DNA from: Candidatus Marinacidobacterium sp.
Lineage (GTDB): Bacteria; Acidobacteriota; Vicinamibacteria; Marinacidobacterales; Marinacidobacteraceae
Assembly (NCBI GenBank): GCA_965220965.1
Contig: OZ244852.1
Span: 1,088,001 to 1,152,000 of the forward strand
Length of the DNA stretch: 64,000 nt
Reading direction: 5' to 3'
Position numbers and translations under genes: made by a program. The notes under the pieces are model-generated. The model saw only the letters and a list, made by a program, of their open reading frames with translations, searched no databases and had not been told where the DNA came from. Positions 17,141 to 46,169 of this stretch are shown here, piece after piece (the first letter of the stretch is position 1; every line of letters starts with the position of its first letter).

Positions 17141-17638
17141 ATGGCCCCCGCCGATCCCGAGCGCCCGACCCACGCTCTGTGGCGCTGGCTCGAGGGGGCG
17201 GCGGCGCTCGCGCTCGGGCTCATGTCGGCGCTGGTGATCTACCAGGTCGCGGCCCGCTATCTGTTTGACAGCCCCCCGAGCTGGACCGAGGAGCTGGCCC
17301 GCTACCTCCAGGTCTGGCTCGTCCTGCTGGCGGCGCCAGTCTGCCTCCGGCGGGGCATGCACCTCGCGGTGGACCTGCTCACGCCGCGCCTCCCCGCCTT
17401 CGCGGGGTCGCTCGTCCGGGCGGCCATCCTCGCGCTGGTCGGCGGCTTCGGCCTCATCTTCGCGGTCCAGGGCGTCCGCCTTCTCCGCATCGCCGCCCTC
17501 CAGACCTCGCCGGCGCTCGGGATCTCGATGATCTGGCCCTACCTGGCGCTCCCGCTCTGCGGCGCGCTGATCGCGCTCGCCGCCGCGGCCCGGATCGCCG
17601 CATCCCGAGGGGAGGGGAGGCCCCCGGACGGCGCGTGA
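17141..17638 (+). CDS. dctQ: TRAP transporter small permease
   Basis: WTEELARYL, HLAVD, four TM helices. Confidence 0.9.
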   Translation: MAPADPERPTHALWRWLEGAAALALGLMSALVIYQVAARYLFDSPPSWTEELARYLQVWLVLLAAPVCLRRGMHLAVDLLTPRLPAFAGSLVRAAILALVGGFGLIFAVQGVRLLRIAALQTSPALGISMIWPYLALPLCGALIALAAAARIAASRGEGRPPDGA

Positions 17639-29383: not shown

Positions 29384-32300
29384 TCAGACCGGGGGGCTCG
29401 CCCGCGCAACCAGCTCGGAGAGCTTGTAGTTCACGCTTGTAACGCCAAAGTCCGGTTCCTGACTGAAGGGGTGCTTCAGATAAAGGACCTCCTCCCGGCC
29501 ATCCTCGTGAAACAGGACGAGGGCGAGGATGAACTCCCGGGGCTTGTTGAGGGCGGTGAGGATCTCGTTGCGCGTGACGGTCACTGTCTCGGCGGTCGCG
29601 ATCCTCCCCTTGACCTCGATGAAGCGCAGCCTCCTGGTGTTGGGGTTGAAGCTCTCGATGTCGTAACCGAGCTTCTCGGTCTCGCGGTCCACCGGCTCGA
29701 AGCCAAGCTCCCGCTCTGCCGCCATCACCGCGCGACGCGCTCGCGCCGCAGAGGTCTGCGTATCGACTGGCGGTGCTGGTTGGTGCCCGGTTCCGTGGAT
29801 CTCATCCAGAAGACCCCGAGGGACCACGACGAACGCCCCGGTCACTGTGGGAGACGCCGGCGAAATGCGCCTTTGCTCGTCCAACTGCCGTAGCCGGGCC
29901 TCCATGCGCCTCCGAAGCTCGTCCGCCGTCTGCTGCGCCTGGCTTGCGTTCATCCGGGCCACGGGATCGTCGGCGCGCTTTCCGGCTGCGAGTTCCTGGG
30001 CCCGGCGATCCCAATGAGCGATTTCCCGCTCCAGCCGCTTCTTCACCTCGGCGGCCGTCTTCCGGAGAAGCTCCACCCGCGTCTCGGTCACCTCGTTGAA
30101 ATGGTCGGGAACCACGGCCGCGATCGCGTGGTCGCGCGCCCGCTCCTGGAGACTGCTGCCGATCCACTCGAATTCCGGCCGAGACAGGAGCTCGCTGGCG
30201 GCGGGCTCGTCGGGCGCCAGCGGACGAAAGTCGAGGTACGGGGCCGGTCCGAGCCCGCGGATCGAGTCCCGGTCCATTTCGACGGTGACCATCCGCTCGC
30301 TCAGGACCCTCGGCTTGTCACCGTCGACGCGGCCCTCCCGGACTTCGTGCGACAGCGTGACGACGACGCGCGGCTCGGTCCCGTCGTCCAGGTCGTCCAC
30401 CAGCACGGCCCCCTGGCGCAGCACGGGCCCGTACCGCTCCTTCGTCCAACGGACTACGGCGTCGAGCAGCGGATGGCCGGGCGCAAGGAACTCCGCCGAC
30501 GGTTTCCCGTCCACCTGGATGCGACTCTTGTCGAAGGCGACCCGCTCGTAGCGTCGTACGACGGGCTTCTTCCGACCACTCGCGATGGCCTTGCCAACCT
30601 CCCGGATGGCCTGCGGCACATGAGTGATCTGCCAGCGGTCCGTTTCGCGGCCCCGCAACGAGCCGCCGGCGCGGTCCAGGGCATGGCGGAAGAAGGAGCC
30701 AATGAAGTGGGGCTGGAGTCTTCGCGCCTCGGCGCGCTCCATCTCGGCCCGGATGGCCTCGACGCGGGACGTGTCCATGACTTCGCCCGCGAGGGCTCCC
30801 TCCCTGATGAGGCGCCTCAGGTGCGCCGTGTCCACCACGTCGTCGACCACACGTTCCAGATGGAGTCTCGCTTCGGGACGCTCCCCGTACCGGATCGCCT
30901 CGATGAGCAGCTCTCCCAGCGGCTTTCCCTCGAACGCAAGGTTTCCGAGCACGTCGAACACCTGTCCGCCGAGCGTCTGTCGCGCCTGCCCCAGTTTCTC
31001 GAGCAGCCGCTCGTAGACGGCGCCCTCCCGCGTGTCCTTCGCCACCAGATTCCAGAGATGGCAGGTCTCCCGCTGTCCGATCCGGTGGATGCGGCCGAAG
31101 CGCTGCTCCAGCCGGTTGGGGTTCCAGGGCAGGTCGTAGTTGACCATGAGGTGCGCCCGCTGCAGGTTGATGCCTTCCCCGGCGGCGTCGGTCGCGAGCA
31201 GGACCCGCACCTGGGGGTCATGCAGGAACCGCTCCTGGGACTCCCGCCTGGACCGCCGGTCCATCCCGCCATGGATCATCGCGACCGCCTGCGGCCGACC
31301 GAACCGCGTTTCGATGCGGGCCTGAAGCGCGTCCAGGGTCGCACGGTGCTCGGTGAACACAACGAGCTTGCGGGGTGCCGACTCTGACGCTGGCGGAAGC
31401 GCTTCCAGGCCGGCGATCCTCTGCCTGGCGCTCGTTCGCCGTGACGGTCCGCCGCCGAAGAGTTCGTCGAGAAGACCGCGAAGTTCGCTCCATTTCGTGT
31501 CCTTCCCGCTCTGGACCACCTTCTGCGCCCGGAGTTCCAGTTTTCGGAGCGCCGCGATCTCCTGCTGGAGCTCTTCGACGGTCCTCGCGGCCGTCGCCTG
31601 GTCGAGAACCCGCTCCTCCTCGGCCTCGACTTCGTCCTCGGGAAACTCGTCGAGGTCTTCGAGGAAGTCCTCGGCGATATGGCGGATCCGGTCGGGCCGC
31701 CGCGCTTTCCCCCCGCCGCTCTCCAGCTCTTCCCGCTGGGCGTCCAGACGCTCGCGACGCCGGCGGAGCGAAGCGTGGATGGCTTCCGGTGACGAGGCCA
31801 GCCGCCGCTGCAGCACCGTGAGGGCAAACCCGACGGTCCTCCTCCGACCGGAACTACCGACACGGTCAGCGCGGTTGAACTCCTCCCGGACGTAGCTGGT
31901 GACGGCCTCGTAGAGCTCCTTCTCGGCGCCGCTCAGCTCGTAGGGGATCGTGTGGGCGATGCGCTCGGGGAACAGCGGCTTGCTGTCGAACCGGAGGAGC
32001 TTTTCCTTCACCATCCGCCGCATCAGATCGGAGGCGTCCACCCGCCAATTCGCCTCGTTCGCGTGCCGGCCGGGTTTGCCGGCAAAGCGGTCTTCGTCCA
32101 GCAGGCTCATGAAGAGCGAGAAGTTGGCCTCGATCCCCGAGTGGGGTGTCGCCGTCATGAGCAGCAGGTGGCGAGTCTTCTGCGAGAGAAGCCGACCGAG
32201 CTGGAACCGCTTGGTGTACTTGATCTCGTCGCCGTAGTACTGGGCCGACATCTTGTGGGCCTCATCGCAGATCACCAGGTCGTAGCGGCAGTCCCGGGCC

Positions 32301-32953
32301 CTGATCTGGCTCTGGAGCTCCTCGTTGCGGGACAGCATGTCGAGGCGGGCGATCCCGAACGGGGTCTCGAGGAACCAGTTGCCGCTGGCCGCGGTCTCGG
32401 CCTTGTCTTTGGTCAGGATGTCGAACTGGAGCCGGAACTTCTGATCCAGCTCGTCCTGCCACTGCTCCACGAGCGCCCCGGGACACACCACGAGACAGCG
32501 CTCCACATCCCCGCGGGCGATCAGCTCGCGGATGAGGAGGCCCGCCATGATCGTCTTCCCGGCGCCCGGGTCGTCGGCCAGCAGGAAGCGCAGCGGCTGG
32601 CGCGGCAGCATCGCCTCGTAGACGGCGGTGATCTGGTGTGGCAGGGGCTCGACGTCGGACGTCTGGACCGCAAGGCGCGGGTCGTAGAGGTGCGCGAGGT
32701 GGATGCGCTCCGCCTCCGCCGCGAGGCGAAACAGCGCGCCGTCGGCGTCGAACCGAAACGCCGGCTCTTCCGGCGCGACCTCGAGTCGGGACTCGTCGGC
32801 GCGGTAGAGAACCCGCTCGTCGAGGCGGCCACCCTCGTCACGCGTGATCAGGGTGAGCGCGTCGTTTCCGTGCCACGTCAGGCTTTCGACGCGGACCGGC
32901 GCCGACGCCAGACCGAGAACGTGAACCCCGGTCTGGAGATCTTCGAGCTTCAC
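29384..32953 (-). CDS. SNF2-family helicase with C-terminal DUF3883 (NOV) nuclease
   Basis: ADDPGAGKT, DEAH, TATPH, NYDLPWNPNRLEQRFGRIHRIGQ, GYDIES...IEVKGR; probable GTG start at 32953. Confidence 0.92.
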   Translation of the reverse strand: MKLEDLQTGVHVLGLASAPVRVESLTWHGNDALTLITRDEGGRLDERVLYRADESRLEVAPEEPAFRFDADGALFRLAAEAERIHLAHLYDPRLAVQTSDVEPLPHQITAVYEAMLPRQPLRFLLADDPGAGKTIMAGLLIRELIARGDVERCLVVCPGALVEQWQDELDQKFRLQFDILTKDKAETAASGNWFLETPFGIARLDMLSRNEELQSQIRARDCRYDLVICDEAHKMSAQYYGDEIKYTKRFQLGRLLSQKTRHLLLMTATPHSGIEANFSLFMSLLDEDRFAGKPGRHANEANWRVDASDLMRRMVKEKLLRFDSKPLFPERIAHTIPYELSGAEKELYEAVTSYVREEFNRADRVGSSGRRRTVGFALTVLQRRLASSPEAIHASLRRRRERLDAQREELESGGGKARRPDRIRHIAEDFLEDLDEFPEDEVEAEEERVLDQATAARTVEELQQEIAALRKLELRAQKVVQSGKDTKWSELRGLLDELFGGGPSRRTSARQRIAGLEALPPASESAPRKLVVFTEHRATLDALQARIETRFGRPQAVAMIHGGMDRRSRRESQERFLHDPQVRVLLATDAAGEGINLQRAHLMVNYDLPWNPNRLEQRFGRIHRIGQRETCHLWNLVAKDTREGAVYERLLEKLGQARQTLGGQVFDVLGNLAFEGKPLGELLIEAIRYGERPEARLHLERVVDDVVDTAHLRRLIREGALAGEVMDTSRVEAIRAEMERAEARRLQPHFIGSFFRHALDRAGGSLRGRETDRWQITHVPQAIREVGKAIASGRKKPVVRRYERVAFDKSRIQVDGKPSAEFLAPGHPLLDAVVRWTKERYGPVLRQGAVLVDDLDDGTEPRVVVTLSHEVREGRVDGDKPRVLSERMVTVEMDRDSIRGLGPAPYLDFRPLAPDEPAASELLSRPEFEWIGSSLQERARDHAIAAVVPDHFNEVTETRVELLRKTAAEVKKRLEREIAHWDRRAQELAAGKRADDPVARMNASQAQQTADELRRRMEARLRQLDEQRRISPASPTVTGAFVVVPRGLLDEIHGTGHQPAPPVDTQTSAARARRAVMAAERELGFEPVDRETEKLGYDIESFNPNTRRLRFIEVKGRIATAETVTVTRNEILTALNKPREFILALVLFHEDGREEVLYLKHPFSQEPDFGVTSVNYKLSELVARASPPV

Positions 32954-32969
32954 GCCGGTGTTCCGGTGC

Positions 32970-35900
32970 TCATTCGTCCTCGAAGCCGTGTTTGGCGAAG
33001 CGGAGGGACTGGCTGTTCTCCCGGACGATCCTGACGATGTCCTCCGGGAACCCTTCGGACCGCTCGGCCGAGACCTCGAGGGTGACCTGGACATCGGCGC
33101 CGATCTGTCCGGAGAGATGAGCGATGACCTCTTCGGCGACTCTGGCCGCATCAGGTCCGATGCGCCCTGGATCGAGCGCGACCGAGCCGAAGAAGCGCCG
33201 TGACGTCGGGACCGGCGGGGGAGGTATCGGCGGATCCGGCGGGGGCACGGGCCCGGGTTCCCGATCCGCGGCCACCGCCTCCGGCCGCACCAGCACCCCC
33301 GGAGAATCGGGCGTCACCCGGTAGGCCTGCCCAGCGCTCACCCCAACGTAGCGCCCTTCTCCTTCATCGTAGGACTCGGCAAAGCCGAAGGTGTCCCGCT
33401 TCCAGCTCAGGAGCCCGAGCCCCTGCGTGATCGTCTCCGCGAGAACCTCCGGTCCCGCCAGACGGGGGCGCTCCAGGAGCTGCGCGTAGTAGTGGACCAG
33501 CTTCCGGATGGAGACGTGGTCGCCGTCCCAGAGCGGCACGCGGTCCAGATCCCGCCGCAGCAGCGTCGCGCCGTACTGCGTGATGAGGAGTTCTTCCTTC
33601 CGGGCCCGGACTGCAACGCGCTCGACGAGACCGCCCGATCCCTTGAGCCGCAGCGCCTCCCAGGTGACCGGGGCCTGCGGCCCCGTCTTCTTGGGCGCCA
33701 GCAACCAGCAGTAGGTCTCGCGCAACTGCGCCTCCACCCCCCGCTCCGCATCGTCCCGCCGCGCCTCCGCCTGCTTTCGTTGCGACGGCGCGAGATTCAG
33801 GCGGTCGGCGTCGTCAACGACCGAGCGCCACGCCAGAAGCCGACGGACCGCGCCTTCGAGATCCTGACTCCTTGTCTTGTCAGCCGCCAGGAACAGCAGG
33901 GTGTTCCGGAACTCCCGTGGCGCGTTGCCGCGCCATTCCAGGATCTTCTGCGCCTTCCCCACGGCGGGGTCATCCCCCTCTCCCTTCACGCACGGTGTAT
34001 CGGTGGAGAGGATCACGAGTCGGACGCGCGTCTCGTCGGGCACATCCCCCGATTCGCGCGGCGCTGCGTGGATCGCCGCGAAATCCCCACGCCTCTTCGC
34101 CTCCTCGCGGAGGCGTTTCCCGACCTCCTGCGCCACATCGTCGCCCCGGCATTCCTGCGCCCGATCCCGGGCGAGCTTGGTAACCGTCGGCTGGATGTCG
34201 TACCAGTAGCGGGAGCCGTCGGCGTAGAGATACGTCCCGCGTTCCGTGAGGCGGCGCAACGCATCCTCGTAGACCGCGATCCGTTGTCCCGGAATGGCGC
34301 ATCCGAGTCGGATGCGGCGGGCCTCGATCCCCTGCTGGGCCGCTTTCTGCTTCGGCGCCGACCCCAGGAATATGGTGCGGGCGACCTTCCCGGCGGCCCG
34401 CACCCGGCCGAAGTTGGCGTTCGACTTATCGATCTCGAGCGGCAGCGATCGGTCGCCATCCACGTCCTGATCGAGGATCGAGTCCCAGGGATCCTCCAGG
34501 TAACGAAGCAGCTCGGACCGCACCGGCCCCGGGTCCAGAGGGATCATGGACGGCAGGATCAGCGGGCTCTGATCGTTCGATTCCCACAGCGAGTGGATGA
34601 CCGCCGCCATCAGGCGAAGGACGCCCCGGGTGCGCTGGAAGCGGAGCCGCGAGGCCCAGTCTTCGTAAAGCCGGTCAAAGACCTCCGGGTGGATCGGGTA
34701 GGCGCTCTCGATTCGCTCGCGGTACGGGACCTCGGAGCAGGCCCTCGGAAAGTCCGCCCGGCCCTCCCGGTAATACTCGGCGAACCGCCGGGCGGTCTGG
34801 TCCCGGTGCTTGTAGTGACTGCCGGGCATGTTCTCGAACAGCCTCCGCCGGACGATCTCGAAGCCCTCCTCCGATGTCGCTGGCTTCCACGATGAGGCCA
34901 CGCGACCGAGAACATTCCGCAGCTTGTCAAGGGCCTGCCGACCCCGCACTCCGCCGACCTCCTCGTCCATGTCGTCGGAGGAGGCGTGTCCCTCGCTGGA
35001 CGCCGGGAGCGAGATCACGAGCAGGCAGTTCTTCGCCTGCTTGACCGTTTCGGTGAGGGCCTGGGCGAACGAGAACTGCGTCTCGAACGATCCACCGGGA
35101 AGGTCGGAGCGGTCCTGAAGCTGGCGGGCGTAGGCCACCCATTCGTCCACCAGGATCAGGGCCGGCCCGTAACGCTCGAGCAACTTGCCGAGCGCCGCCC
35201 CCGGGTTGGTGGCTTTTTCGTCGTCGGTCCGGATCCGGGCGAAGGCCTCCGGGCCGCCGAGTTGCCAGGCGAGTTCTCCCCAGAGCGTTCGGACGATCAC
35301 GCCGTCGGGCTTTTTCTGCGGGCTACCGGGTGAGATGCGGTTCCCGACGAGAACCACGCGCCGCACGTTCGATGGCAGTTCGGTGATCTCCGCCTTGGAA
35401 AGCAGGTTGTCCACACCGTACAGATCCGAGGCCGGCTTTCCGGAAAAGAGGTGGTAGAGCGCCAGCATCGAGTGGGTCTTGCCCCCACCAAAGTTCGTCT
35501 GGAGGTCGACCACCGGGTCTCCGCCAACCCCGGAGAGCCGGCGCACACCCCCGGTCAGCAAGGCCCGGAGTCCCGCGGTGAGATGGGTTCGCCGGAAAAA
35601 CTGGCCGGGATCGCCGTACTCGGCCCCCACGGCTCCCGCATCGTCATGGACGGCGTGGAGATCCGCCGCGAACTCGGCCTGCTGGTAGGCGCCTCCCCGA
35701 ACATCCTCGTGCGGCGTGATGACGTCCCGCCACGGCTTCAGTCCCTCGACCGGCCCCTCCGCAACGCGTTCCTTCCGCTTCCGGCGGCGATCCGCGTCAC
35801 GCGCCCGTTCCTCGTACCGGAGGCGAAGAAGCTCGTCCTTCATCGGGACCAACTGAGCGGCCTGCGAGGCCGACACCGCCGCCAGGAGTCGCTCGGCGTC

Positions 35901-36242
35901 ATCCAGCGCGCGGAAGGCCTCGTCGCCGGAAAACGTCTGCTGGTGAGCCCAACGGTTCCGCGCCGCCTTCAGAGCGTGGATCAGACTCCGCTCGGCGTTT
36001 CCGAGCGGAAACCGGAAGACCGGATCCCAGAGATCGAGCATCACCCCGAGGAGCGCGGCGGCGTCCCATCCCTCCGGGAACGACTTCGCCTGGTTCCGCG
36101 ACCGCGCCAGCGCGGAAAGCGCGTCCCGGCCGACGCGTTGCTTCTCTATTCCGCTCTGGACCTCCCGCTCGATGAAGGGGGCGAGCCCCTGCTGCAGCAG
36201 GTCGAGCGCCTTCCCGACCTGATCGCGGTTCGTCAGTGCCAC
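32970..36242 (-). CDS. Swt1-like HEPN + DUF499 AAA+ ATPase
   Basis: RNRWAH (RxxxxH), PWRDVITPH, EFAADL, TNFGGGKTHS, YPIHPE, FQRTRGVLRL; GGAGG RBS. Confidence 0.9.
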   Translation of the reverse strand: MALTNRDQVGKALDLLQQGLAPFIEREVQSGIEKQRVGRDALSALARSRNQAKSFPEGWDAAALLGVMLDLWDPVFRFPLGNAERSLIHALKAARNRWAHQQTFSGDEAFRALDDAERLLAAVSASQAAQLVPMKDELLRLRYEERARDADRRRKRKERVAEGPVEGLKPWRDVITPHEDVRGGAYQQAEFAADLHAVHDDAGAVGAEYGDPGQFFRRTHLTAGLRALLTGGVRRLSGVGGDPVVDLQTNFGGGKTHSMLALYHLFSGKPASDLYGVDNLLSKAEITELPSNVRRVVLVGNRISPGSPQKKPDGVIVRTLWGELAWQLGGPEAFARIRTDDEKATNPGAALGKLLERYGPALILVDEWVAYARQLQDRSDLPGGSFETQFSFAQALTETVKQAKNCLLVISLPASSEGHASSDDMDEEVGGVRGRQALDKLRNVLGRVASSWKPATSEEGFEIVRRRLFENMPGSHYKHRDQTARRFAEYYREGRADFPRACSEVPYRERIESAYPIHPEVFDRLYEDWASRLRFQRTRGVLRLMAAVIHSLWESNDQSPLILPSMIPLDPGPVRSELLRYLEDPWDSILDQDVDGDRSLPLEIDKSNANFGRVRAAGKVARTIFLGSAPKQKAAQQGIEARRIRLGCAIPGQRIAVYEDALRRLTERGTYLYADGSRYWYDIQPTVTKLARDRAQECRGDDVAQEVGKRLREEAKRRGDFAAIHAAPRESGDVPDETRVRLVILSTDTPCVKGEGDDPAVGKAQKILEWRGNAPREFRNTLLFLAADKTRSQDLEGAVRRLLAWRSVVDDADRLNLAPSQRKQAEARRDDAERGVEAQLRETYCWLLAPKKTGPQAPVTWEALRLKGSGGLVERVAVRARKEELLITQYGATLLRRDLDRVPLWDGDHVSIRKLVHYYAQLLERPRLAGPEVLAETITQGLGLLSWKRDTFGFAESYDEGEGRYVGVSAGQAYRVTPDSPGVLVRPEAVAADREPGPVPPPDPPIPPPPVPTSRRFFGSVALDPGRIGPDAARVAEEVIAHLSGQIGADVQVTLEVSAERSEGFPEDIVRIVRENSQSLRFAKHGFEDE

Positions 36243-36331: not shown

Positions 36332-37246
36332 TCACCGCGCGCTGCGGGGCCGCCGTGACGCCTCGAAATCACGGGAAGGATCGAGCAGAGCGGCGATCGC
36401 GCTCCCGATCCGTTCGGCCGCCGCCTCCAGATCCCGGTCGCCCACATGGGTGTAGCGCAGGGTCATCCGCGTCCCGCTGTGCCCGAGCAGGCGGGAGACG
36501 ACGGGGAGGGGCGTTCCCCGCAGCACCGCGTGGCTCGCGAACGTGTGCCTCAGATCGTGCAGGCGAACATCCTCGATGCGGGCGTCACGGCGCACCTTGC
36601 GCCAGAGGGAAAGCTCCGAAGATCGAGGCTGGGACGGATCTCGAAGGCAGGGGAAGACCCAGGGGCTCCCGTTGCGAGGCTGCCTCCGCAGGATGTTCCG
36701 GGCGGGCGCATTCAGAAGCACCGTGCGAGCGCCGGTCTTGCTGTCCGGTAGGTGAAGCATGTCGTCGTCCACGTCGCGGCAGCGCAGATGCACGAGTTCT
36801 CCCTTGCGGCAGCCGGTGAGGAGCAGAAGGCGCAGAATGTCCGCCTGTTGGCCTCCGGACCCTCGGCCCCGATGACGATCTATGGCGCGGTGCAGCCTCC
36901 GGACTTCCGTCCGTGACAGGAATCGGGTCCGGCGGACCTCCGGGTTGCGCACGACTCCGCGCGCCGGATTGCGACGGAGATGCCCGCAGGCCACGGCGTG
37001 ATTCAGGATCTGGCGCAGGATGTCGAGGGTCCGGTTGGCGCCGGCCGGGGCGCTCGCGCTGTAGCGGTCGAACCAGGCATGGACGACGCGCGGCTGGATG
37101 CGTGTCACGCGGCGTCCCCCGAACGTGGGCAGCAGTTGGGTTCGCAGCGCGCTGTCCACCCGCCGGCGGGTTGAGGGCTTCAAGCGCTGGTAGCACTCGG
37201 CCCTCCACCGACCGCTCACGAACTCCGCAAACGTTGGCGCGGTCAA
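36332..37246 (-). CDS. Tyrosine recombinase/integrase (copy 2)
   Basis: TGCRKGE, DSKTG, HDLRH, LLGH, RY; no arm-binding domain. Confidence 0.92.
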   Translation of the reverse strand: MTAPTFAEFVSGRWRAECYQRLKPSTRRRVDSALRTQLLPTFGGRRVTRIQPRVVHAWFDRYSASAPAGANRTLDILRQILNHAVACGHLRRNPARGVVRNPEVRRTRFLSRTEVRRLHRAIDRHRGRGSGGQQADILRLLLLTGCRKGELVHLRCRDVDDDMLHLPDSKTGARTVLLNAPARNILRRQPRNGSPWVFPCLRDPSQPRSSELSLWRKVRRDARIEDVRLHDLRHTFASHAVLRGTPLPVVSRLLGHSGTRMTLRYTHVGDRDLEAAAERIGSAIAALLDPSRDFEASRRPRSAR

Positions 37247-37248
37247 GC

Positions 37249-38136
37249 TCAGCCCCCGAGCGCCCGCCCGACCCGCTCGGAGGCGAGACGAGCCATGGCG
37301 TCGCCGAAGTGGAGGTAGCGGAGCGTCGTCGCCGGGTCGCGGTGGCCGAGCAGTCGGCCGATGGTCAGCACCGTCTCTCCTCGCCGCAACGCAAGGCTGG
37401 CGTAGGTGTGCCGAAGGTCGTGGAGCCGGACGTCCGGGAGGTCAGCCATCCTTCTCAGGCTCCGCCAGTGGCGCGACAGGGTCTCGGAGGGCATCGGCCC
37501 CGAACCCCGGCTCGCCGGGAAGACCCACACGCTGCGCCGAGGCAGCAGGTCCAGGACCGAGCGCGCCGCGCGCGAAAGCCAGACAGTGCGCGGGCCAACC
37601 TTGCTGTCGCTCAGGAACAGACAGTCCTCCCGGTAGTCGGACCACCGGAGCGCCCGGATCTCGCTCTGCCGGCAGCCGGTCAGCAGGAGGAGCCGGACCA
37701 GGGCGGCAGGTAAGGGGATGTTGCTCTGCTCGGCGGCGAGCGTCGCGCCGAGCCGCCGGGTCTCCTCCATCGTCAGGAAGCGTTGCCTGCCCGGTCGCCG
37801 GTAGCGCCGGATCCCGAGGCACGGGTTCGCGCCCCGTCGCCGGTAGCCGTAGATCTCAGCCTGACGAAGGATGACCGACAGGATGGGAAGCGAACGATCG
37901 GCGGCCGCGGGAGTCTTGTGCAGGGCGGAGAACCACCGCTGCACCTCGGCGCGCGTGATGGAGCGCACCGGTCGCTCCCCGAACCAGGGGAGGATCTGGT
38001 TGCGCAAGTAGATCCGGTTCACCGCCAGGGTGCTCGGCTTCCAGGTCCGGCCGTAGCGTTGGAAGACTTCGCTTGCGACGGCATGAAAGCGGTGGCCGCG
38101 CGTCGGAGAGCGGCGTGGTGAGTCGTGTGTCGGCAT
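37249..38136 (-). CDS. Tyrosine recombinase/integrase (copy 1); start uncertain
   Basis: TGCRQSE, DSKVG, HDLRH, LLGH, RY. Confidence 0.9.
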   Translation of the reverse strand: MPTHDSPRRSPTRGHRFHAVASEVFQRYGRTWKPSTLAVNRIYLRNQILPWFGERPVRSITRAEVQRWFSALHKTPAAADRSLPILSVILRQAEIYGYRRRGANPCLGIRRYRRPGRQRFLTMEETRRLGATLAAEQSNIPLPAALVRLLLLTGCRQSEIRALRWSDYREDCLFLSDSKVGPRTVWLSRAARSVLDLLPRRSVWVFPASRGSGPMPSETLSRHWRSLRRMADLPDVRLHDLRHTYASLALRRGETVLTIGRLLGHRDPATTLRYLHFGDAMARLASERVGRALGG

Positions 38137-38262
38137 GTGAGCAAGGATCGCCACAAAGGGGAGCCATTGACGGGAGGTTCGGAGTCACAGGAGGGGCGCC
38201 GCGGAACCTCTTGTCCCGCAAGTCTTTGGGGTGTCCTGGAGGCTCCGATACCCTCTACCCTC

Positions 38263-40902
38263 GTGGCCGCGCGCAAGCTGATCGAGACCTCGCTGCCGCT
38301 GGACGCGATCAACGCTGCGGGCGCTCGCGAGAAGTCCATCCGCCACGGGCACCCTTCTACGCTGCACCTCTGGTGGGCGCGCCGGCCGCTCGCGGCGGCG
38401 CGGGCGGTCCTGTTCGCCCAGATGGTGGACGATCCGGACGAGGAGCGGTTCCCGACCGAGGAAGCGCGGCAGGCGGAGCGTGAGCGCCTGTTCGACATCC
38501 TGCGCCGGCTGGTGCTGTGGGAGAACACCACTAACGAGGAGGTGCTCGAGGAGGCGCGAGAGGAGATCCGCAAGAGCTGGCGGCGCGCGTGCGAGGACAA
38601 CCGCGACCACCCCCGCGCCGCCGAGCTCTTCGACCCGGAGCGCCTCCCCGCGTTCCATGACCCCTTCGCCGGGGGCGGCGCCATCCCGCTGGAAGCCCAG
38701 CGGCTCGGGCTCGAGGCGCACGCCAGCGACCTGAACCCGGTCGCCGTCCTGATCAACAAGGCGCTGATCGAGATCCCGCCGAAGTTCGCCGGGAAGCCGC
38801 CGGTGAACCCGGAGGCGTGCAGCCAGCCGAAGCTCTCGCAGCGGAGCTGGAAGGGAGCGACCGGCCTTGCGGAGGACATCCGCCACTATGGCCAGTGGAT
38901 GCGGGACGAGGCGGAGAAGCGGATCGGACACCTCTACCCGAAGGTCGCGGTCACAACACAGATGGTCGAGGAGCGGCCGGACCTGAAGCGCTACGCGGGT
39001 CGGGAGCTGACGGTCATCGCGTGGCTCTGGGCGCGGACGGTGCGGAGCCCGAACCCAGCGTTCCGGGACGTGGAGGTTCCGCTGGCGTCAAGCTTCGTGC
39101 TTTCGGCGAAGAAGGGGAAGGAGGCGTGGGTGGAGCCGGTCGTGGAGGGGCGCAGCTACCGCTTCCGGGTGCGGACGGGAACGCCTTCGGACGAGGCGAA
39201 GAGGGGCACAAAGTCTGGCGGGAGCGGGAGTTCCTTCCTCTGCCTGTTGTCCGGAGTCCCAATGCTCTTTCCGTATCTGCGATCCGAAGGCAAGGGGGGG
39301 CGCCTGAGGTCCCGCTTGATGGCCGTTGTCGCGGCGGGTGACCGGGAGCGCGTGTATCTGAGCCCCAACCAGGAACAGGTGCGCGCGTCCGTAGCGGCGA
39401 AGCCGGATGTGCTTCCGGAGACAGCTCTTCCGGCTAGAGCCTTGGGCTTTCGCGTTCAGGAATACGGAATGCTCCGATGGTCCGACCTCTTCACCGATCG
39501 TCAGCTCGTTGCGCTGACGACATTCTCCGATCTCGTCGGTGAGGCCATGGATCGCATCCGCCGGGATGCGTCCATAGCGGGGCTCCGGGACGACGGGATT
39601 GCACTGCGGAAGGGCGGCGTTGGCGCGCTCGCGTATGCCGAGGCGGTGGCGGTGTATCTGGCGTTCGCGCTGAGCAAACAAGCCGATTTGGGAAACAGCC
39701 TGTGTCGCTGGGAGCCCCTCGCACAGTGTCCACGTCAGCTCTTTGCACGACAGGCGATTCCGATGGTGTGGGACTTCGCCGAAGGGAATCCGTTGGGGTA
39801 CAGCTCCGGTTCCTGGACGGTTTGCGTTGAGGGGATTGCCAAGGCCTTCACTCGAGCGTTTCGCGTCGCTCGGACAGATGCCGTTGGTGTGGCCCGGCAG
39901 ATGGATGCCCAGTCGCAGGGCCTATCGCGAGGCCGGGTCGTCTCTGCGGATCCACCCTACTACGACAACATCGGCTATGCGGACCTCTCGGATTTCTTCT
40001 ATGTCTGGCTGCGCCGGTCGCTGAGGTCAGTGTGTCCCGAGCTGTTCGCCACCCTGTCAACACCCAAGGCAGACGAGCTCATCGCCACGCCGTATCGACA
40101 CGGCGGCACAGAAGAAGCCGAGACCTTTTTTCTGGAGGGTATGTCGACCTGCCTGCGTCGCATCGCCGTCGATGCACATCCGATGTTCCCGATTTCCGTC
40201 TATTACGCTCGGAAACAGAGTGAGCAGCGGGGTGCCCGGGGAAACAGGACGGGTTGGGAGACATTCCTTGAATCTGTTGTACGTGCCGGTGTTTCCGTAC
40301 ACGGTACGTGGCCCATGCGCACAGAAAACGCGAGTCGAATGACCGGCCAGGGGACGAACGCGCTCGCCTCCAGCATCGTTCTCGTCTGCCGTCGCCGTCC
40401 GGACGATGCCCCGACCGCGTCCCGCCGCGAGTTTGTAACGGCATTGCGCCGGAAACTTCCCGTCTCGTTGCGGCTTCTGCGTAGCGGCAACATTGCCCCC
40501 GTAGACCTCGCCCAGGCTGCTATCGGTCGCGGGATGGCGATATACACCCGTTACGCCCAAGTGCTTGATGCATCCGGAACTCCGGTCCCGGTGCGGGACG
40601 CTCTGGCGTTGATCGACCAGGTCCGCATTGAGGAACTCACACGAGCGGAAGGAGACTTCGACAAGGAGAGCCGCTGGGCTCTCGCCTGGTTCGACAGTCA
40701 CGGGTTCGCCGAGGGGCCCTTCGGCGAGGCGGAGACGCTCTCGACGGCCACGAACACAAGCGTGGCAACGATGGCAAGAGTCGGAATCCTCGAATCGCGG
40801 GGAGGTAGTAGCCCCAGAGGAGGCGGTAGCAGAGTTCCCGGTACGCGGGGACCCGCCCGACAGCGCCCTCCGCACAGGGTCGGGGTGCCGTCCATCACCT
40901 GA
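38263..40902 (+). CDS. DUF1156 adenine DNA methyltransferase, copy A (tail frameshifted after ~40805)
   Basis: [33 protein letters not shown]; the conserved tail continues in other frames to 41110. Confidence 0.88.
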   Translation: MAARKLIETSLPLDAINAAGAREKSIRHGHPSTLHLWWARRPLAAARAVLFAQMVDDPDEERFPTEEARQAERERLFDILRRLVLWENTTNEEVLEEAREEIRKSWRRACEDNRDHPRAAELFDPERLPAFHDPFAGGGAIPLEAQRLGLEAHASDLNPVAVLINKALIEIPPKFAGKPPVNPEACSQPKLSQRSWKGATGLAEDIRHYGQWMRDEAEKRIGHLYPKVAVTTQMVEERPDLKRYAGRELTVIAWLWARTVRSPNPAFRDVEVPLASSFVLSAKKGKEAWVEPVVEGRSYRFRVRTGTPSDEAKRGTKSGGSGSSFLCLLSGVPMLFPYLRSEGKGGRLRSRLMAVVAAGDRERVYLSPNQEQVRASVAAKPDVLPETALPARALGFRVQEYGMLRWSDLFTDRQLVALTTFSDLVGEAMDRIRRDASIAGLRDDGIALRKGGVGALAYAEAVAVYLAFALSKQADLGNSLCRWEPLAQCPRQLFARQAIPMVWDFAEGNPLGYSSGSWTVCVEGIAKAFTRAFRVARTDAVGVARQMDAQSQGLSRGRVVSADPPYYDNIGYADLSDFFYVWLRRSLRSVCPELFATLSTPKADELIATPYRHGGTEEAETFFLEGMSTCLRRIAVDAHPMFPISVYYARKQSEQRGARGNRTGWETFLESVVRAGVSVHGTWPMRTENASRMTGQGTNALASSIVLVCRRRPDDAPTASRREFVTALRRKLPVSLRLLRSGNIAPVDLAQAAIGRGMAIYTRYAQVLDASGTPVPVRDALALIDQVRIEELTRAEGDFDKESRWALAWFDSHGFAEGPFGEAETLSTATNTSVATMARVGILESRGGSSPRGGGSRVPGTRGPARQRPPHRVGVPSIT
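38272..39174 (+). repeat. 903-bp inverted repeat, left arm (partner 42669-43571)
   Basis: Colinear without indels; about 16 of 301 aa differ by hand count; includes a 105/106-bp identical block (38822-38927 vs 42916-43021). Confidence 0.9.
40522..40555 (+). repeat. Exact 34-bp inverted repeat, left copy (ATCGGTCGCGGGATGGCGATATACACCCGTTACG)
   Basis: Reverse complement at 41303-41336. Confidence 0.9.
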
Positions 40903-41110
40903 TCCGGGCGCACGAGTCGGAGGGAGAGGACGGCGCTGCGACACTCGGCAAGAAGCTCGGCGCGAAGGCCGATGCCGCCCGCGAACTCTGCTACCGCCTC
41001 CACTCGGTCGCCGACCGCAAGGGAAGGCCTGCCGAAGCCCTGCGGTACAACACCTCGTCCAGAGTTGGCCGGAGATCCAGAGGCTCATGCGGACGCCAGC
41101 TTGGACGTGA
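40806..41110 (+). pseudogene. Frameshifted C-terminal segment of the DUF1156 methyltransferase
   Basis: EFPVRGDPPD, then AVHHLIRAHES...ARELCYRLHSVADRKG...ALRYN, then LVQSWPEIQR, in alternating frames. Confidence 0.7.
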
Positions 41111-41114
41111 GCCG

Positions 41115-43604
41115 TCACTGTTCGCTTCCTGATGGTGATCGCGCTGCCGGCGTGTCCTCCAGGCCGCCACAGTGCTCCGTCATCGTGGCGAGCGCCCTCA
41201 CGCTGCCAACCGAGGACGCGAGGCCACGAACCTGCGCGCCGACAACGCTGTCTCCAGTGGCTCCGGGTCCCGCTGGTTCCGGGAGACGCCGCTTCAACGG
41301 CCCGTAACGGGTGTATATCGCCATCCCGCGACCGATGGCGGCCTGCGCGAGGTCAACGGGGGCGATGTTCTCGCTCCGCAGAAGCTGTAACGCCTCCGGA
41401 AGCTCCCGGCGCAGACCCGCCAGAAACTCGCGGCGGGGCGCGGTCGGCGCATCGTCCGGACGGCGACGGCAGACGAGCACGATGCTCGATGCGAGAGCAG
41501 CGACATTCTTCTTGAGATTCCCGGTCAGTTCGGTCCGCATGGGCCAAGTGCCGGTCAGCGAGAAGCCAGACTCGATCACCGCCGCCAGGAAGGTCTCCCA
41601 CCCGGTGCTGGTTGTTCCGGCATCGACCTTCGTCTCTGACTGCTTGAAGGCGTAGTAGATCGTGACCGGGTAGTGCGGATGGGATTGCTCAGAGAGCCGG
41701 CGAAGTGCCCGGGTCATGCCCTCCACGAAGAACTGTCGGGCGGCCTCCCGACTACCGTGCCGGTACGGCGTGGCGACGAGTTCGTCGGACTTTGGTGTCG
41801 CCAGCGTGGCGAGGAGGTCAGAGAAAGCTCGTCTCAGCGAGTGGCGAAGCCAAACGTAAAAGAAATCGGAAAGGTCCGCATATCCGATGTTGTCGTAGTA
41901 GGGCGGGTCGGTCGATACGACCGAGTCCCGCAGGGACCGAATCAGCTGCGCGTCGCCTTGTGTGGCCATGCCAGCGATCGCCAGCGGAGCTGCGACGACG
42001 CACTTGATCGGAAATCTGAGTTGCCCTGCCCAGCTACCGGTGGATGAGCTGAATGGATTGGCCTCGCATGAATCCCACACCATGGGCAGCGCTTGGCGAG
42101 CGAAGACCTGTTGGACGTTTTGCCCTTTCCGGTCCCAGAAGGAGAGCGACGAGTGCCGATTGGCCAACCGACCCACTGCCAGACCGAGATACACCGCCAC
42201 CGCCTCGGCATAGGCAAGCGCGCCAGCCCCGCCCTCCCGCAGCGAAACGCCATCGTCCGGGAGCTCCGCTGCCGCCGCATTCCCGCGGATGCGATCTATC
42301 GCCTCGCCGACGAGATCGGAAAACGTCGTCAAGGCTTGGAGTTGGCGCGAGGTGAAGAGATCTCGCCACTCCACGAAGCCGTAGGGCACACAAGTGCCCC
42401 CCGTGAGCCGCGGTGGCACGAGCCCCTGTGGACGCCATGCCGGCTCTGTCAATCGTGGCTCTGATTCGTGTGGCGGCGAGGGATCGAGGTAGATACGTTC
42501 GCGCTCTCCCTCGGCTACTACAGCTAGCAGGCGGGCACCCATCCGCTTGGCCTGCCCCTCCGCCTTGATGTAGTCGCTGCGGATCGGCGAGGCCGACATC
42601 AGGCACCGGAAGTTCGCTCCTCGCGACAGCTTGGTGCCCTTCCTGGCGTCTTCCGGCGAGGCTCCCCGCCGCACCCGGAACCGGTAACTCCGTCCGTCGA
42701 TCACCGGCTCGACCCACGCCTCCTTCCCCTTCTTCGCCGAGAGCACGAAGCTCGACGCCAACGGAACCTCCACGTCCCGGAACGCCGGATTCGGGCTCCG
42801 CACCGTCCGCGCCCAGAGCCAGGCGATGACCGTCAGCTCCCGGCCCGCATAGCGCTTCAGGTCCGGCCGCTCCCCAACCATCTCCGGCGTGATCGCGACC
42901 TTCGGATACAGGTGGCCGATCCGCTTCTCCGCCTCGTCCCGCATCCACTGGCCGTAGTGGCGGATGTCCTCCGCAAGGCCGGTCGCTCCCTTCCAGCTCC
43001 GCTGCGAGAGCTTCGGCTGGCGTCGCGCCTCCGGATTCACTGGCGGCTTCCCGGCGAACTTGGGAGGGATCTCGATCAGCGCCTTGTTGATCAGGACCGC
43101 GACCGGGTTCAGATCGCTGGCGTGCGCCTCGAGCCCGAGCCGCTGGGCCTCCAGCGGGATCGCGCCTCCCCCGGCAAAGGGGTCGTGGAACGCGGGGAGA
43201 CGCTCCGGGTCGAAGAGCTCGGCGGCGCGGGGGTGGTCGCGATTTTCCTCGCAGGCGCGCCTCCAGCTCTTTCGGATCTCCGCGCGGGCCTCCTCGAGCA
43301 CCTCCTCGTTCGTGGTGTTCTCCCAAAGCACCAGCCGGCGCAGGATGTCGAACAGGCGCTCCCGCTCCGCCTGCCGCGCTTCCTCCCTCGGGAACCGCTC
43401 CTCGTCCGGATCGTCCACCATCTGGGCGAACAGGACCGCCCGCGCCGCCGCAAGCGGCCGGCGCGCCCACCAGAGGTGCAGCGTGGAAGGATGCCCGTGG
43501 CGGATGGATTTCTCCCGCGAGGCGGCGGCGTTGACCGCGTCCAGCGGCAGCGCCGCTTCGATCAGCTTGCGACGGTGACTGACAACGTTCCCTGACGGAC
43601 TCAC
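41115..43604 (-). CDS. DUF1156 adenine DNA methyltransferase, copy B (C-terminally truncated after AIYTRY)
   Basis: Same catalytic motifs as copy A with a different central region; GAGGAGG RBS; unrelated sequence after 41303. Confidence 0.88.
41303..41336 (-). repeat. Exact 34-bp inverted repeat, right copy; the point where copy B loses homology
   Basis: Reverse complement of 40522-40555. Confidence 0.9.
42669..43571 (-). repeat. 903-bp inverted repeat, right arm
   Basis: Reverse-complement match to 38272-39174. Confidence 0.9.
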
Positions 43605-43650
43605 GATTCAGGCGCCTCCTCGGAAGCGGGCGGCGCGACAGCGTGACGTG

Positions 43651-43860
43651 TCACGAGCGCAGCTTCCGCAGCAGATCGAGCGTCGTGCCGCTCGTCGGCG
43701 AGCGGAACTTCAGTTGGCGGATCCGCGCGACGATGTCCCGGCGCGCTTCCTCGGTCTCCTGGTTCACCAACGGTTCCCGTTCCTCCTCCAGAGTCCGGCC
43801 GGCGCCGGTGGGAGTGGCCGGGCGACAGCCCTCGATCGGCTCCGCGTCGCGCCCGATCCC
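43651..43860 (-). pseudogene. Possible decayed FitA/Arc-like antitoxin
   Basis: GRTLEEE...ARRDIVARIRQLK...TTLDLLRKLR resembles FitA-type C-termini; N-terminus not recognisable. Confidence 0.3.
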
Positions 43861-44012
43861 ATCCGGAAGGCTGTGAGGTCGTTGTCCGCGGCCCCGCGCA
43901 TCGTCCCTGACCATGATCGCGGAGGATGGGCGGTTCAGCCCCGCGGTGTCAATACGCGCGCGCAACACGGAGCCCAGCGGAGAAACCCCCAAACCGCGGC
44001 GTGGCCGGCAGC

Positions 44013-44252
44013 TCAGGCGTCCTCCTCCATCACCCTGTCGAGCGCGTCGCGGTCGGCTATATCGACGCGCGGCGTCCCGCCGCTCCAGCTTGGCAAGGGC
44101 GGGAGAGGCTTGCGAGCGGCTGCCTGGGCTGGTTCGGACAGGACCAGTCGGACCCCTTCCTCGACGAGGCGTGAGACCGTGACGCCGCGACGCGCGGCCT
44201 CCTCGGTTGGGCGTCGCAGGAGCACCTCGTCCAGTTCGAACGTCGCCTTCAT
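44013..44252 (-). CDS. VapB/CopG-like RHH antitoxin (orphan)
   Basis: MKATFELDEVLLRR...AARRGVTVSRLVEEGVR...VDIADRDAL; TAGGGT -10 box 6 nt upstream. Confidence 0.75.
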   Translation of the reverse strand: MKATFELDEVLLRRPTEEAARRGVTVSRLVEEGVRLVLSEPAQAAARKPLPPLPSWSGGTPRVDIADRDALDRVMEEDA

Positions 44253-44372
44253 GGAGCAACCCTACTCCCGCGCGAGGGAATCAGCAGATCCGGTCCCGCC
44301 CGGTCTGTCTCGGTCCGTCCCGCGCCGCAATGAAGGAAACGCTCCCCCGCTGCGTAGTCCTACAGTAGAACG

Positions 44373-44951
44373 ATGCCGCGCCCTGCCGACGCTTCCGATC
44401 CTGCGGCGCTCGATCCGGAGGAGCAGGAGTGGATCCGGCGCTGCCGGAACGGTTCTCGCCGGGCCTACGAGCCGCTGGTCCGGCGCTACGCCACGTGGGC
44501 GGAGGCCTTCGCGTTCCGGCGGGTGGGCGACCGGGAGGAGGCGCGCGATCTGGCGCAGGAGGCCTTCGTCCGGGCGTTCCACGCGATGCCGCGGTTTCGC
44601 CCGGGGCGGCCGTTCCTGCCGTGGTTCCTCGCGATCCTCGACAACCTCTGCCGGAGCGAAATCCGGAGGCGGCGTCCCCATCTTGGGCTCGACGAGGTGC
44701 GTGAGCCCTCGAACGACGGCGGGATGGGGGATGTCGCGCGGCGACTCGATGTGGCGGAGGGTCTCGCGGCTTTGACCGAGGCCCAGCGGCAGGTCGTCGT
44801 GCTGAAGGATCTCGAAGGCCGGCCTCACCGGGAGGTGGCGGCCCGGCTCGGGATCCCCGAAGGGACCGTGATGTCCCGCCTGCACTTCGCGCGGCGACGC
44901 CTGCGCGAACTGTTTTCCGGCGCCGGACGGCGGCGCGCGGGAGGCGCCTGA
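44373..44951 (+). CDS. ECF sigma-70 factor
   Basis: AYEPLVRRY, DLAQEAF, PWFLAI, EVAARLGIPEGTVMSRLHFAR. Confidence 0.92.
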   Translation: MPRPADASDPAALDPEEQEWIRRCRNGSRRAYEPLVRRYATWAEAFAFRRVGDREEARDLAQEAFVRAFHAMPRFRPGRPFLPWFLAILDNLCRSEIRRRRPHLGLDEVREPSNDGGMGDVARRLDVAEGLAALTEAQRQVVVLKDLEGRPHREVAARLGIPEGTVMSRLHFARRRLRELFSGAGRRRAGGA

Positions 44952-45325
44952 TGATGACGAACGAACAGAAGTCTGCTAGCCCCGCGTCCTCGGGGCGGCT
45001 TCCGGCGGATGCGCCCGGGGTCGAAGATCGGGACATCCGGCCCGCCGACTCCGACGACGCCGCACTCGACCGGTTCTGGCTGGGGGTCTACTCCCGGCTG
45101 GAGCGGGGGATCGCGTGGGTCCTCGTCTCTGCGTCGCTTGCGGCGCTCGGGATGTACGGCGCCTACCACTTCGCGACCGAGTTCCTCGCCGACGGCGAGG
45201 TTCCGATCGTGGTCCGTTTCGGGACCGCCGGGCTGCTGCTCGGTATCCTGCTTCTTCTCCTCGGCGTGGTCCGCGAACGGATCCGCGCCCTCTCCACGGA
45301 TCCGTTCCGGAGGGTCCGCCGATGA
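44951..45325 (+). CDS. Two-TM membrane protein, anti-sigma-like
   Basis: Coupled to the ECF gene; FWLGVYSRLERGIAW, two TM helices, TDPFRRVRR. Confidence 0.65.
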   Translation: MMTNEQKSASPASSGRLPADAPGVEDRDIRPADSDDAALDRFWLGVYSRLERGIAWVLVSASLAALGMYGAYHFATEFLADGEVPIVVRFGTAGLLLGILLLLLGVVRERIRALSTDPFRRVRR

Positions 45326-45636
45326 TCCTGAGCACAACCTCATCTGTCCCCGGACGCGAAGTCGCCTCCGTCCTGGGAGTCGCCCGGGGCAACACGATCC
45401 GCACCCGCCACGTCGGGCGCGACATCCTCGCCGGGCTGCGAACCATCGTCGGCGGCGAGGTCGTGGGATACACCAAGCTCATGGCCGAGAGCCGCGAACA
45501 GGCCATCGCCCGCATGATCGAACACGCCGAGTCCCTCGGCGCCGATGCGGTGCTGGGCATGCGGGTCAGCACCCAGATGGTCATGGCGGGGGCCTCCGAG
45601 ATCCTCGTCTACGGGACCGCGGTCAAGCTGCGGTAG
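45322..45636 (+). CDS. YbjQ/UPF0145 family protein
   Basis: HVGRDILAGLRTIVGGE, GADAVLG, EILVYGTAV. Confidence 0.92.
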   Translation: MILSTTSSVPGREVASVLGVARGNTIRTRHVGRDILAGLRTIVGGEVVGYTKLMAESREQAIARMIEHAESLGADAVLGMRVSTQMVMAGASEILVYGTAVKLR

Positions 45637-45642
45637 GCCGCG

Positions 45643-46131
45643 GTGGCGGACGCCCCCGAGCGGGACGCGGGTCGGTTCTACGAGGACTTCCGCGTCGGAC
45701 AGCGCATCGTCCACCCGCTCGGGAGGACCGTCCACGCGGCGGACAACTCCTGGTTCTCGCTGCTGACCCAGAACCAGAACCCGATCCATGTGGATCACCA
45801 CTTCAGCGAGCGGACGCCCTTCGGGAAGCCGCTGGTGAACTCCTGTCTCACGCTGGCGCTTGCGACCGGACAGTCGGTGAACGACCTGACCCGGAACGTG
45901 CTGGCAAACCTCGGGTGGGAGGATGTCCGGCTCCCGGCTCCGTTCTTCGAGGGGGACACGCTCTATTCGGAGAGCGAAGTGCTCACCGCCCGGGAGTCCC
46001 ACTCCCGGCCGGAGGCGGGCGTCGTCATCGTCCGGACGACCGGGAGGAACCAGGACGGGACCGTCGTGATCTCGTTCCGGCGGACGTTCCTCGTGTGGAA
46101 GCGGGCGCACGCTCCGGCGTCGCCGGGGTAG
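45643..46131 (+). CDS. MaoC family dehydratase
   Basis: GRFYEDF, NQNPIHVD, ANLGW, GDTLY, NQDG. Confidence 0.9.
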   Translation: MADAPERDAGRFYEDFRVGQRIVHPLGRTVHAADNSWFSLLTQNQNPIHVDHHFSERTPFGKPLVNSCLTLALATGQSVNDLTRNVLANLGWEDVRLPAPFFEGDTLYSESEVLTARESHSRPEAGVVIVRTTGRNQDGTVVISFRRTFLVWKRAHAPASPG

Positions 46132-46169
46132 GGGGCGGGGCCCGGGTCCCCGGGGCGGGCTGGCGCGCC

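Follow-up and report, generated by a model that had tools for sequence, protein, structure and literature searches.

The 64,000-nt stretch of contig OZ244852.1 considered here (the window), from assembly GCA_965220965.1 of Candidatus Marinacidobacterium sp. (genome of 3.25 Mb; guanine-plus-cytosine (GC) content of the window, 70.8%), carries a locus that is, on its PADLOC and Pfam profile matches, an Hma defence system, alias type-1 BREX-related (BR) system. The Hma core is complete in the window, with matches to the PADLOC profiles of HmaA (1469 bits), HmaB (1313 and 1227.5 bits, for two copies) and HmaC (1023.6 bits), all with E = 0. The methyltransferase gene hmaB is present as two bodies in inverted orientation with a single C-terminal tail, and two tyrosine recombinase genes lie beside them. 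From this anatomy and from the comparison with related loci, we infer a programmed inversion switch, which we consider likely: the two HmaB bodies would alternate for one shared tail, and the recombinase pair would run the exchange.

In the proposed mechanism, two full bodies, which both have a start and an N-terminal DUF1156 domain of their own, would compete for one tail of about 190 amino acids (aa), and the paired recombinases would invert the 747-bp tail segment between inverted 34-bp sites located in the coding sequence. In the assembled state body A would be complete and body B would end in unrelated codons; after inversion, body B would be complete (958 aa) and body A cut short. Such a flip would alter the sequence methylated by the system and, should HmaB direct restriction too, as is supposed of PglX in BREX, the sequence attacked. 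The scheme supposes an inversion that would still take place today, catalysis by the two recombinases, a tail that the methyltransferase would require and bodies that would differ in specificity. The features of the locus are the following (window positions).

29384..33151, minus strand: HmaA, SNF2 helicase with a C-terminal NOV_C/DUF3883 nuclease-type domain (PADLOC match over residues 67-1253; Pfam SNF2-rel_dom, Helicase_C, NOV_C)
32970..36242, minus strand: HmaC, DUF499 ATPase with an N-terminal Swt1-like HEPN domain (PADLOC; Pfam DUF499, HEPN_Swt1)
36332..37246, minus strand: tyrosine recombinase 2, 304 aa (Pfam Phage_integrase, 71.5 bits, plus SAM-like and central domains)
37249..38154, minus strand: tyrosine recombinase 1, 301 aa, divergent from HmaB body A (Pfam Phage_integrase, 64.5 bits)
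38125..40555, plus strand: HmaB body A, DUF1156 N6-adenine methyltransferase, through the site (PADLOC HmaB, 1313 bits; Pfam DUF1156)
38272..39213, partner 42630-43571, no strand: N-terminal inverted-repeat arm, 942 nt, 91% complementary (repeat search)
40381..40409, partner 41449-41477, no strand: second exact block, 29 bp, encoding a conserved motif (list of exact runs)
40522..40555, plus strand: left copy of the 34-bp site, encoding 11 residues and the first base of the next codon
40556..41302, no strand: 747-bp segment between the sites, proposed to invert (tail coding 40556-~41132 on the plus strand, then a spacer of ~170 nt)
41303..41336, minus strand: right copy of the 34-bp site, inverted
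41303..43604, minus strand: HmaB body B, with its own N-terminus (PADLOC HmaB positions 5-782 of 967, 1227.5 bits; Pfam DUF1156)

The real start of HmaA probably lies downstream of 33151, and that of body A probably lies near 38250, judging from comparison with relatives.

Two bodies, one tail and the 34-bp inverted repeat

At the protein level, bodies A and B share about 96% identity across residues 50-345 and diverge at about residues 350-450, 511-600 and 660-745, i.e., around and after the catalytic DPPY motif; the divergent parts are presumed to be the target-recognition parts. The profile match of copy B stops at its residue 768, the Tyr that ends the site, whereas the match of copy A continues. 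As assembled, copy B extends beyond this point through 61 codons (41115-41302) unlike the HmaB family. A reading made earlier from the letters of the window (the sequence-only reading) had placed the repeat exactly where copy B leaves the family and had described the stretch after body A as the sole methyltransferase C-terminus of the locus; both statements agree with the profile matches. When the bracketed segment was inverted in silico with the short-read corrections described below, body B and the tail formed a protein of 958 aa, in frame and without a stop, and body A with the tail, likewise corrected, was open over 1001 codons from 38125. The predicted in-frame fusion of the tail to copy B is thus obtained with the short-read-corrected tail but not with the tail as assembled, whose frameshifts the sequence-only reading had missed. 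A scan for sigma-70-like promoters returned 0 sites against 0.4 expected and is uninformative for DNA of 71% GC.

The repeat itself consists of the 34-mer ATCGGTCGCGGGATGGCGATATACACCCGTTACG at 40522-40555 on the plus strand and its reverse complement at 41303-41336, 747 nt apart. The exact repeat noticed in the sequence-only reading is present, and a scan of the whole 3.25-Mb genome with up to 3 mismatches found just these two copies (reversed control pattern, 0). A longer inverted repeat, of 196 nt with 86% complementarity, has the 34-bp run at its inner end. The exact identity of the 29-bp second block was likewise confirmed. Among the exact runs between copies A and B, the 34-bp run ranks 7th in length, the six longer ones (35-67 bp) all lying inside the 942-nt N-terminal arm.

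Outside the N-terminal arm, 117 of the 229 degenerate codons of conserved residues are identical between the copies (0.51), against 10/10 inside the site (P ~0.0012, for that one place), which is the longest such run outside the arm. The earlier statement that the codons of the site are identical amid synonymous differences is therefore borne out, as is the rarity of its ATA codon (11 of the 187 Ile codons in eight genes). Its proviso that equally long identical tracts might occur elsewhere applies in part: six longer ones exist, all in the N-terminal arm, but outside this arm none is as frozen in its codons. Taken by itself in this window, the repeat is only moderately improbable. We propose that the 34-bp site is a recombination core centred on ATATAC. 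The dyad formerly noted in the site is indeed weak: by eye, the flanks of the centre are unlike each other in related loci, and dyad symmetry was rejected on this ground. Also rejected was the idea that the N-terminal arms contain another sharp recombination site, since identity tapers gradually there.

That a methyltransferase would need the tail is suggested by the relatives (the best 80 loci presented below): the reading frame is open from the N-terminal domain through the tail in all 74 evaluable plus-strand HmaB genes, six of the 80 being outside the filters. An AlphaFold model of HmaB from locus L008, made with 47 aligned sequences, had a mean predicted local distance difference test score (pLDDT) of 74.3 and a predicted template modelling score (pTM) of 0.49. 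In this model the break-point falls directly past the helix 749-764, and the part beyond the site is mostly helical with short strands, with a pLDDT mostly of 84-95. Among solved structures, a profile search gave 0 matches and Foldseek against the PDB gave 0 at E <= 0.001, with generic methyltransferase folds at E >= 0.15; the tail is therefore without a named structural relative.

Layout and break-point in related loci

A collection of genome contigs yielded 540 relatives, the best 80 of which were compared. Eight of these 80 combine two inverted HmaB bodies, a recombinase pair and a single tail: L008 (Thalassobaculaceae), L018 (Candidatus Multivorans, Acidobacteriota), L025 and L054 (Longimicrobiales), L043 (Vicinamibacterales), L045 (Bryobacterales), L048 (Binatia) and L055 (Acidobacteria). 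In L055 the N-terminal part of the second body was seen as a short tblastn match, and the recombinases lie beyond the second body rather than between the bodies. In the window's own family, the pair was found in 7 of the 40 relatives searched; seven stretches were taken from five pair-bearing genomes, and six of them hold HmaB bodies beside the pair. Three of these (L096, L097, L098) are one-tail loci, two from one genome (L099, L100) have a tail or part-tail on both bodies, and L101 stops at the contig end. The one-tail loci thus number 12 with the window, span Alphaproteobacteria, Acidobacteriota, Gemmatimonadota and Binatia in addition to the window's family, and carry recombinase pairs 59-72% identical to that of the window. 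In all 12, the two sites lie on opposite strands. The 11 further loci with the same layout support the earlier notion of one shared tail, which would be swapped by an inversion that the comparison points to.

Two topologies were observed. The window and L008 are convergent, with the tail between the bodies, and most other one-tail loci are divergent, with the recombinases between the bodies and the tail outside, an arrangement absent from the sequence-only reading. A segment of ~0.75-1.3 kb would flip in the former and a whole block of 6-8 kb in the latter, with the same swap either way. Where the recombinases lie between the bodies, six loci (L018, L025, L048, L054, L096, L098) carry the tail on the downstream body, relative to the recombinases, and three (L043, L045, L097) on the other. 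A tail found on either body across loci is what switching would predict, and an inversion in the N-terminal arms would look alike. Orthologous bodies in opposite states were also sought among same-family genomes, where all pairs had 64-82% DNA identity and were too diverged to decide.

Some loci of this set have particularities of their own. The genome G013 contains three loci with the pair and HmaB, namely L099 (contig C2), L100 (contig C1) and L101 (end of contig C2). In L099 both bodies have the tail inside a 6-kb inverted repeat (944-6948 / 13897-19901) that is 97.5% identical, and L100 has a full tail and a part-tail. In the Longimicrobiales locus L054, the tailed body is split by ~1.8 kb between two core pieces (4152-5934).

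The point at which the bodies part is the same throughout. In 12/12 one-tail loci, the exact run shared by the bodies takes in the 30-33 nt encoding I-G-P/R-G-M-x-V/I-Y-T-R-Y/H; it is 31-415 nt long and ends 1-11 nt past the last Tyr (or His) codon. Identity between the bodies is 30-84% over the 300 nt upstream of the run and drops to 13-43%, i.e., random, over the next 60 nt, and the sequence that follows the site in tail-less copies has no conservation. The site also has a signature at the DNA level. Its central wobble is A or T in 12/12 one-tail loci (GTATAC, GTTTAC or ATATAC), against 17/73 single-copy loci and 0/2 two-tail loci (L099 and L100, both GTG), and the codon after the centre is TAC in 14/14 two-body against 22/73 single-copy loci. 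The Fisher P values (1.7e-5 for the wobble, 7e-7 for the TAC codon) exaggerate the significance because the loci are not all independent. The centre of the site is thus kept at the DNA level in one-tail loci far more than in single-copy ones, a contrast of the kind that had been suggested as a check in the sequence-only reading. A tyrosine-recombinase core consists of two arms around an AT-rich crossover region of 6-8 bp. In the shortest exact runs the centre is flanked by 15-18 nt on its left and 10 nt on its right, a geometry that fits such a core.

Sites were also searched for in metagenome contigs with a degenerate pattern, which yielded 56 sites in 55 contigs, several of which start just 53-92 nt upstream of the site. 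Fourteen sites are followed by non-tail sequence, of 7 distinct kinds, and the non-tail sites examined lie next to the recombinase pair or to the end of either hmaC or hmaA. One contig, L120, has two sites in direct orientation. Its positions 1-4275, which end inside hmaC, are 100% identical to other contigs; a join at 4269-4307, with 4 shared bases, falls at the first bases of the site, and the site and tail past it are 99.8% identical to another contig. This join may have arisen by chimeric assembly or by off-target recombination.

The two recombinases of the window are 43% identical to each other in a pairwise alignment and exceed the Pfam cut-off for Phage_integrase (PF00589; 64.5 and 71.5 bits against 27.1). 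Both contain TGCR, HDLRHT and LLGH...LRY stretches, which may correspond to the tyrosine-recombinase catalytic motifs (Arg, His-x-x-Arg, His/Trp, Tyr). Membership in XerC (49.2 and 65.6 against a cut-off of 335), XerD (34 and 67.4 against 329.6) and XerA (61.9 and 76.7 against 220) was rejected, and on these NCBIfam scores the recombinases are to be read as distant relatives of Xer rather than members. Among the 80 loci, a close recombinase pair accompanies 8/8 two-body loci and 1/72 others; in L030 the pair stands with one HmaB body and one site. A plasmid collection searched with recombinase 1 returned 28 records, all at 36.6-42.1% identity (none at 60% or more). Two of these plasmids, from Sphingobium (L157, NZ_CP010956.1, 9659-12063) and Shewanella (L158, NC_017570.1, 9746-12228), carry tandem overlapping pairs annotated as integrases in an unrelated setting with no HmaB nearby. 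Because these two plasmid relatives are also tandem pairs, the paired state seems older than its link with HmaB.

A wider form of the switch can be held tentatively, at somewhat less than even chances. The pair and the tail-less second body would together be a portable constant-tail toggle, spread among Hma/BREX-related systems of at least 4 phyla, with the two recombinases acting jointly in the manner of XerC/XerD on dif. The asymmetric arms of the site, together with the conserved paralog pair, suggest one recombinase per arm; each would bind one arm of an asymmetric core of ~30 bp with a GT[A/T]TAC centre, situated in the most conserved codons of hmaB. Each body would have its own start, and presumably its own promoter, so that either a tail flip or a block flip would assign the single 3' end. 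A clonal population would then hold two defence specificities and pass through no non-functional intermediate state.

Short reads and rival explanations

Three sequencing runs (X1, X2 and X3) were compared with window positions 37000-44800, X1 and X2 as Logan contigs, which are built on 31-letter words. X1 was the best holder run, with 0.92 of the sampled words, and may be the same sample that was assembled; X3, a Hi-C run sampled at ~1 in 100, had 0 reads matching 37000-44800. The X1 contigs break inside the 34-bp sites, giving pieces over 39024-40551, 40526-41332 (803 nt) and 41307-42819. Between the window and the 803-nt contig there are 27 differences (21 substitutions, 6 indels), against 0 in the remaining X1 contigs, which cover ~6.2 kb of flanks (Fisher P = 2e-26). 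The tail of the window, which changes frame at least 2 times, becomes one open frame once the X1 differences are applied. We interpret these frameshifts as errors of the consensus, limited to the bracketed segment. Their clustering is suggestive, and only suggestive, of long reads of both orientations having been merged into one consensus. As a practical warning, the putatively invertible piece is the sole place in 7.8 kb where assembly and short reads conflict, a conflict that creates false frameshifts.

Inside the tail, the window also contains a 38-nt inverted repeat, 82% complementary (40804-40841 / 40979-41016). The short-read version is without the reverse-complement piece at 40804-40841, its left arm reading otherwise. 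There, a fragment of the tail seems to have been placed in reverse complement at the wrong position in the window, which may be a consensus artefact of reads in both orientations; its position is not the exact mirror of the partner at 40979-41016. In run X2, from another study, 37000-38809 and 43552-44800 were recovered without any difference at a depth of 2-4, with almost no depth across 38827-43263. The X2 strain may have other HmaB bodies, or the region may not have been assembled.

Several observations weigh against the switch. The second orientation occurs in no read or contig, the Logan contigs of X1 and X2 being unable to bridge the 34-bp repeat, and genuine frameshifts in the tail, as assembled, would leave this strain with a non-functional switch. 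Among the metagenome contigs found with the degenerate site pattern, no pair joins one body to both a tail and a non-tail end. Since six longer exact runs lie in the N-terminal arm, identity alone fails to single out the site in the window; moreover, the wobbles differ from locus to locus except at the centre, and a clear dyad is missing from the site. In the window's genus, a stretch named L095 (G002:C1:1447500-1467400) carries a pair that is 67-71% identical (9279-11047) with no HmaB within 10 kb, and its neighbour genes have no defence-related Pfam match. The tandem pairs ~40% identical that occur on plasmids in unrelated settings imply that the pair could be a mobile-element module. Lastly, overexpression of Halomonas HmaB in a host left phage T4 infectivity unaffected (PMC11232893), so that a defence role for HmaB methylation is itself unproven.

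Three other explanations, to which we would give about a quarter of the probability in total, were weighed against these data. According to the first, the duplication is a fossil: copy B would be a truncated paralog, the identity of the site would result from protein conservation with occasional gene conversion, and no inversion would occur today. In its favour, few motifs of the family are as conserved as that of the site, in which G758, P759, G760 and M761 do not vary across 47 sequences; the copy pair has longer identical runs in other places, and the Logan contigs, which break at the sites, give no second orientation. A fossil is nevertheless improbable in view of the same truncation point in 12/12 one-tail loci from several phyla, always with the recombinase pair and always with inverted sites. 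Outside the N-terminal arm, synonymous positions are frozen at the site alone, and a central A/T wobble is far commoner there than in single-copy genes.

Recombination of the RecA type, or gene conversion, could also act between the long inverted arms, with the recombinases being mobile-element genes that play no part. The N-terminal arms are 72-99% identical over ~0.9-1.6 kb, in some loci the exact runs reach up to 413 nt upstream of the site in a conversion-like manner, and the pair is also found in unrelated contexts. However, three loci (L008, L048 and the window) have an exact run of just 31-41 nt, a short substrate for efficient homologous recombination. The end of the run falls at the same place (1-11 nt past the last Tyr/His codon) in all one-tail loci, and the pair is tied to two-body loci (8/8 against 1/72), which makes this explanation quite unlikely.

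Finally, the pair and the tail-less body could be a mobile specificity cassette integrated at the site of a resident hmaB, as the greater likeness across phyla of the recombinases (59-72%) than of the bodies (fitting horizontal spread as a unit), the annotation of their plasmid relatives as integrases and the two direct sites of L120 might suggest, but we give it little credit, since integration would leave direct repeats and co-directional bodies whereas the sites are inverted in 12/12 one-tail loci, L120 looks chimeric (join inside hmaC with 4 shared bases), and a cassette may account for the origin of the layout but not for its present form.

Relation to known inverting systems

Programmed inversion of methyltransferase genes is already known. 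Milman et al. (Nucleic Acids Research 2023; PMC9881135) described programmed gene-altering inversions in pglX of type 1 BREX and drmMI of class 1 DISARM, and those that alter methyltransferase systems also cover hsdS of Type I systems. The Hma locus resembles pglX and drmMI as described there, with inverted repeats in a specificity-bearing methyltransferase gene, an adjacent recombinase and alternative in-frame variants, a missing C-terminus being taken as the inactive state (PMC9881135). In Lacticaseibacillus rhamnosus pglX, there is one N-terminus and one C-terminus, and two nested inversions swap the middle part (PMC9881135). In the Hma locus, by contrast, each body has its own N-terminus and start and the tail alone is shared, so one inversion would be enough; the recombinases are two rather than one, and the target is the DUF1156 protein HmaB. 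DUF1156 and DUF499 have 0 occurrences in the main text of PMC9881135.

The locus is also comparable to inverting hsdS genes (pneumococcal cod/ivr, PsrA), in which a tyrosine recombinase and inverted repeats in coding sequence switch methylation specificity in a clonal population. In cod/ivr, shuffling brings target-recognition half-genes into a single expressed hsdS, with a constant methyltransferase. The Hma locus differs in that whole methyltransferase bodies would alternate, the constant part being the 3' end. As in tail-fibre switches and the shufflon, one or few inversions would join a shared gene part to alternative parts. In the tail-fibre switches of Gin/Mu and Cin/P1 and in the R64 shufflon, the 5' part and its promoter are constant and the 3' part varies, Gin and Cin being serine invertases. 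The Hma locus reverses this design, with a constant 3' part and varying 5' parts. The PilV shufflon adhesin and tail fibre proteins are among the enriched inversion targets listed in PMC9881135.

Hma (Payne et al. 2021; PMC8565338) corresponds to the type-1 BR system of a Nucleic Acids Research article of 2026 (PMC12839542). The window has the three core components of this system, namely a DUF1156 N6-adenine methyltransferase, an SNF2 helicase that ends in a nuclease-type domain, and a DUF499 ATPase fused to HEPN. The terms 'recombinase' and 'phase varia' are absent from the main text of PMC12839542, 'recombinase' is absent from that of PMC8565338, neither of these two texts speaks of inversion, and 'recombinase', 'invers' and 'invert' are absent from the study of Halomonas Hma (PMC11232893). 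No account of an inverting hmaB was found in the literature searched, whose supplements may list DUF1156 genes as inversion targets; the shared-tail form of hmaB is thus without a description in that literature. According to PMC11232893, integrases occur in 19.1% of Hma neighbourhoods, where they are read as signs of mobility, and the published phage-protection and methylation data on Hma exist for Halomonas HmaA alone.

Hma is among the most widespread candidate defence systems, being found in 26 phyla (PMC8565338), with type-1 BR in 2446 taxa (PMC12839542). If the proposed switch is real, a two-state HmaB would provide a handle on how the system discriminates self from non-self, as the two states should differ in methylation motif and in phage range, and it would allow a test of whether HmaB sets the specificity of the whole system. 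Specificity switching, as in Type I, BREX and DISARM systems, would then reach another family in a simpler design, with one inversion, a constant 3' end and two recombinases. Integrase genes beside Hma would also gain a second reading besides mobility.

Two further genes adjoin copy B in the window. The first (43648-44775) encodes 375 aa without a Pfam, PADLOC or NCBIfam match, and the second (45009-47927) encodes 972 aa, with Schlafen AlbA_2 and HATPase_c_4 domains and, in PADLOC, weak similarity to Argonaute-associated proteins; both may be further defence genes.

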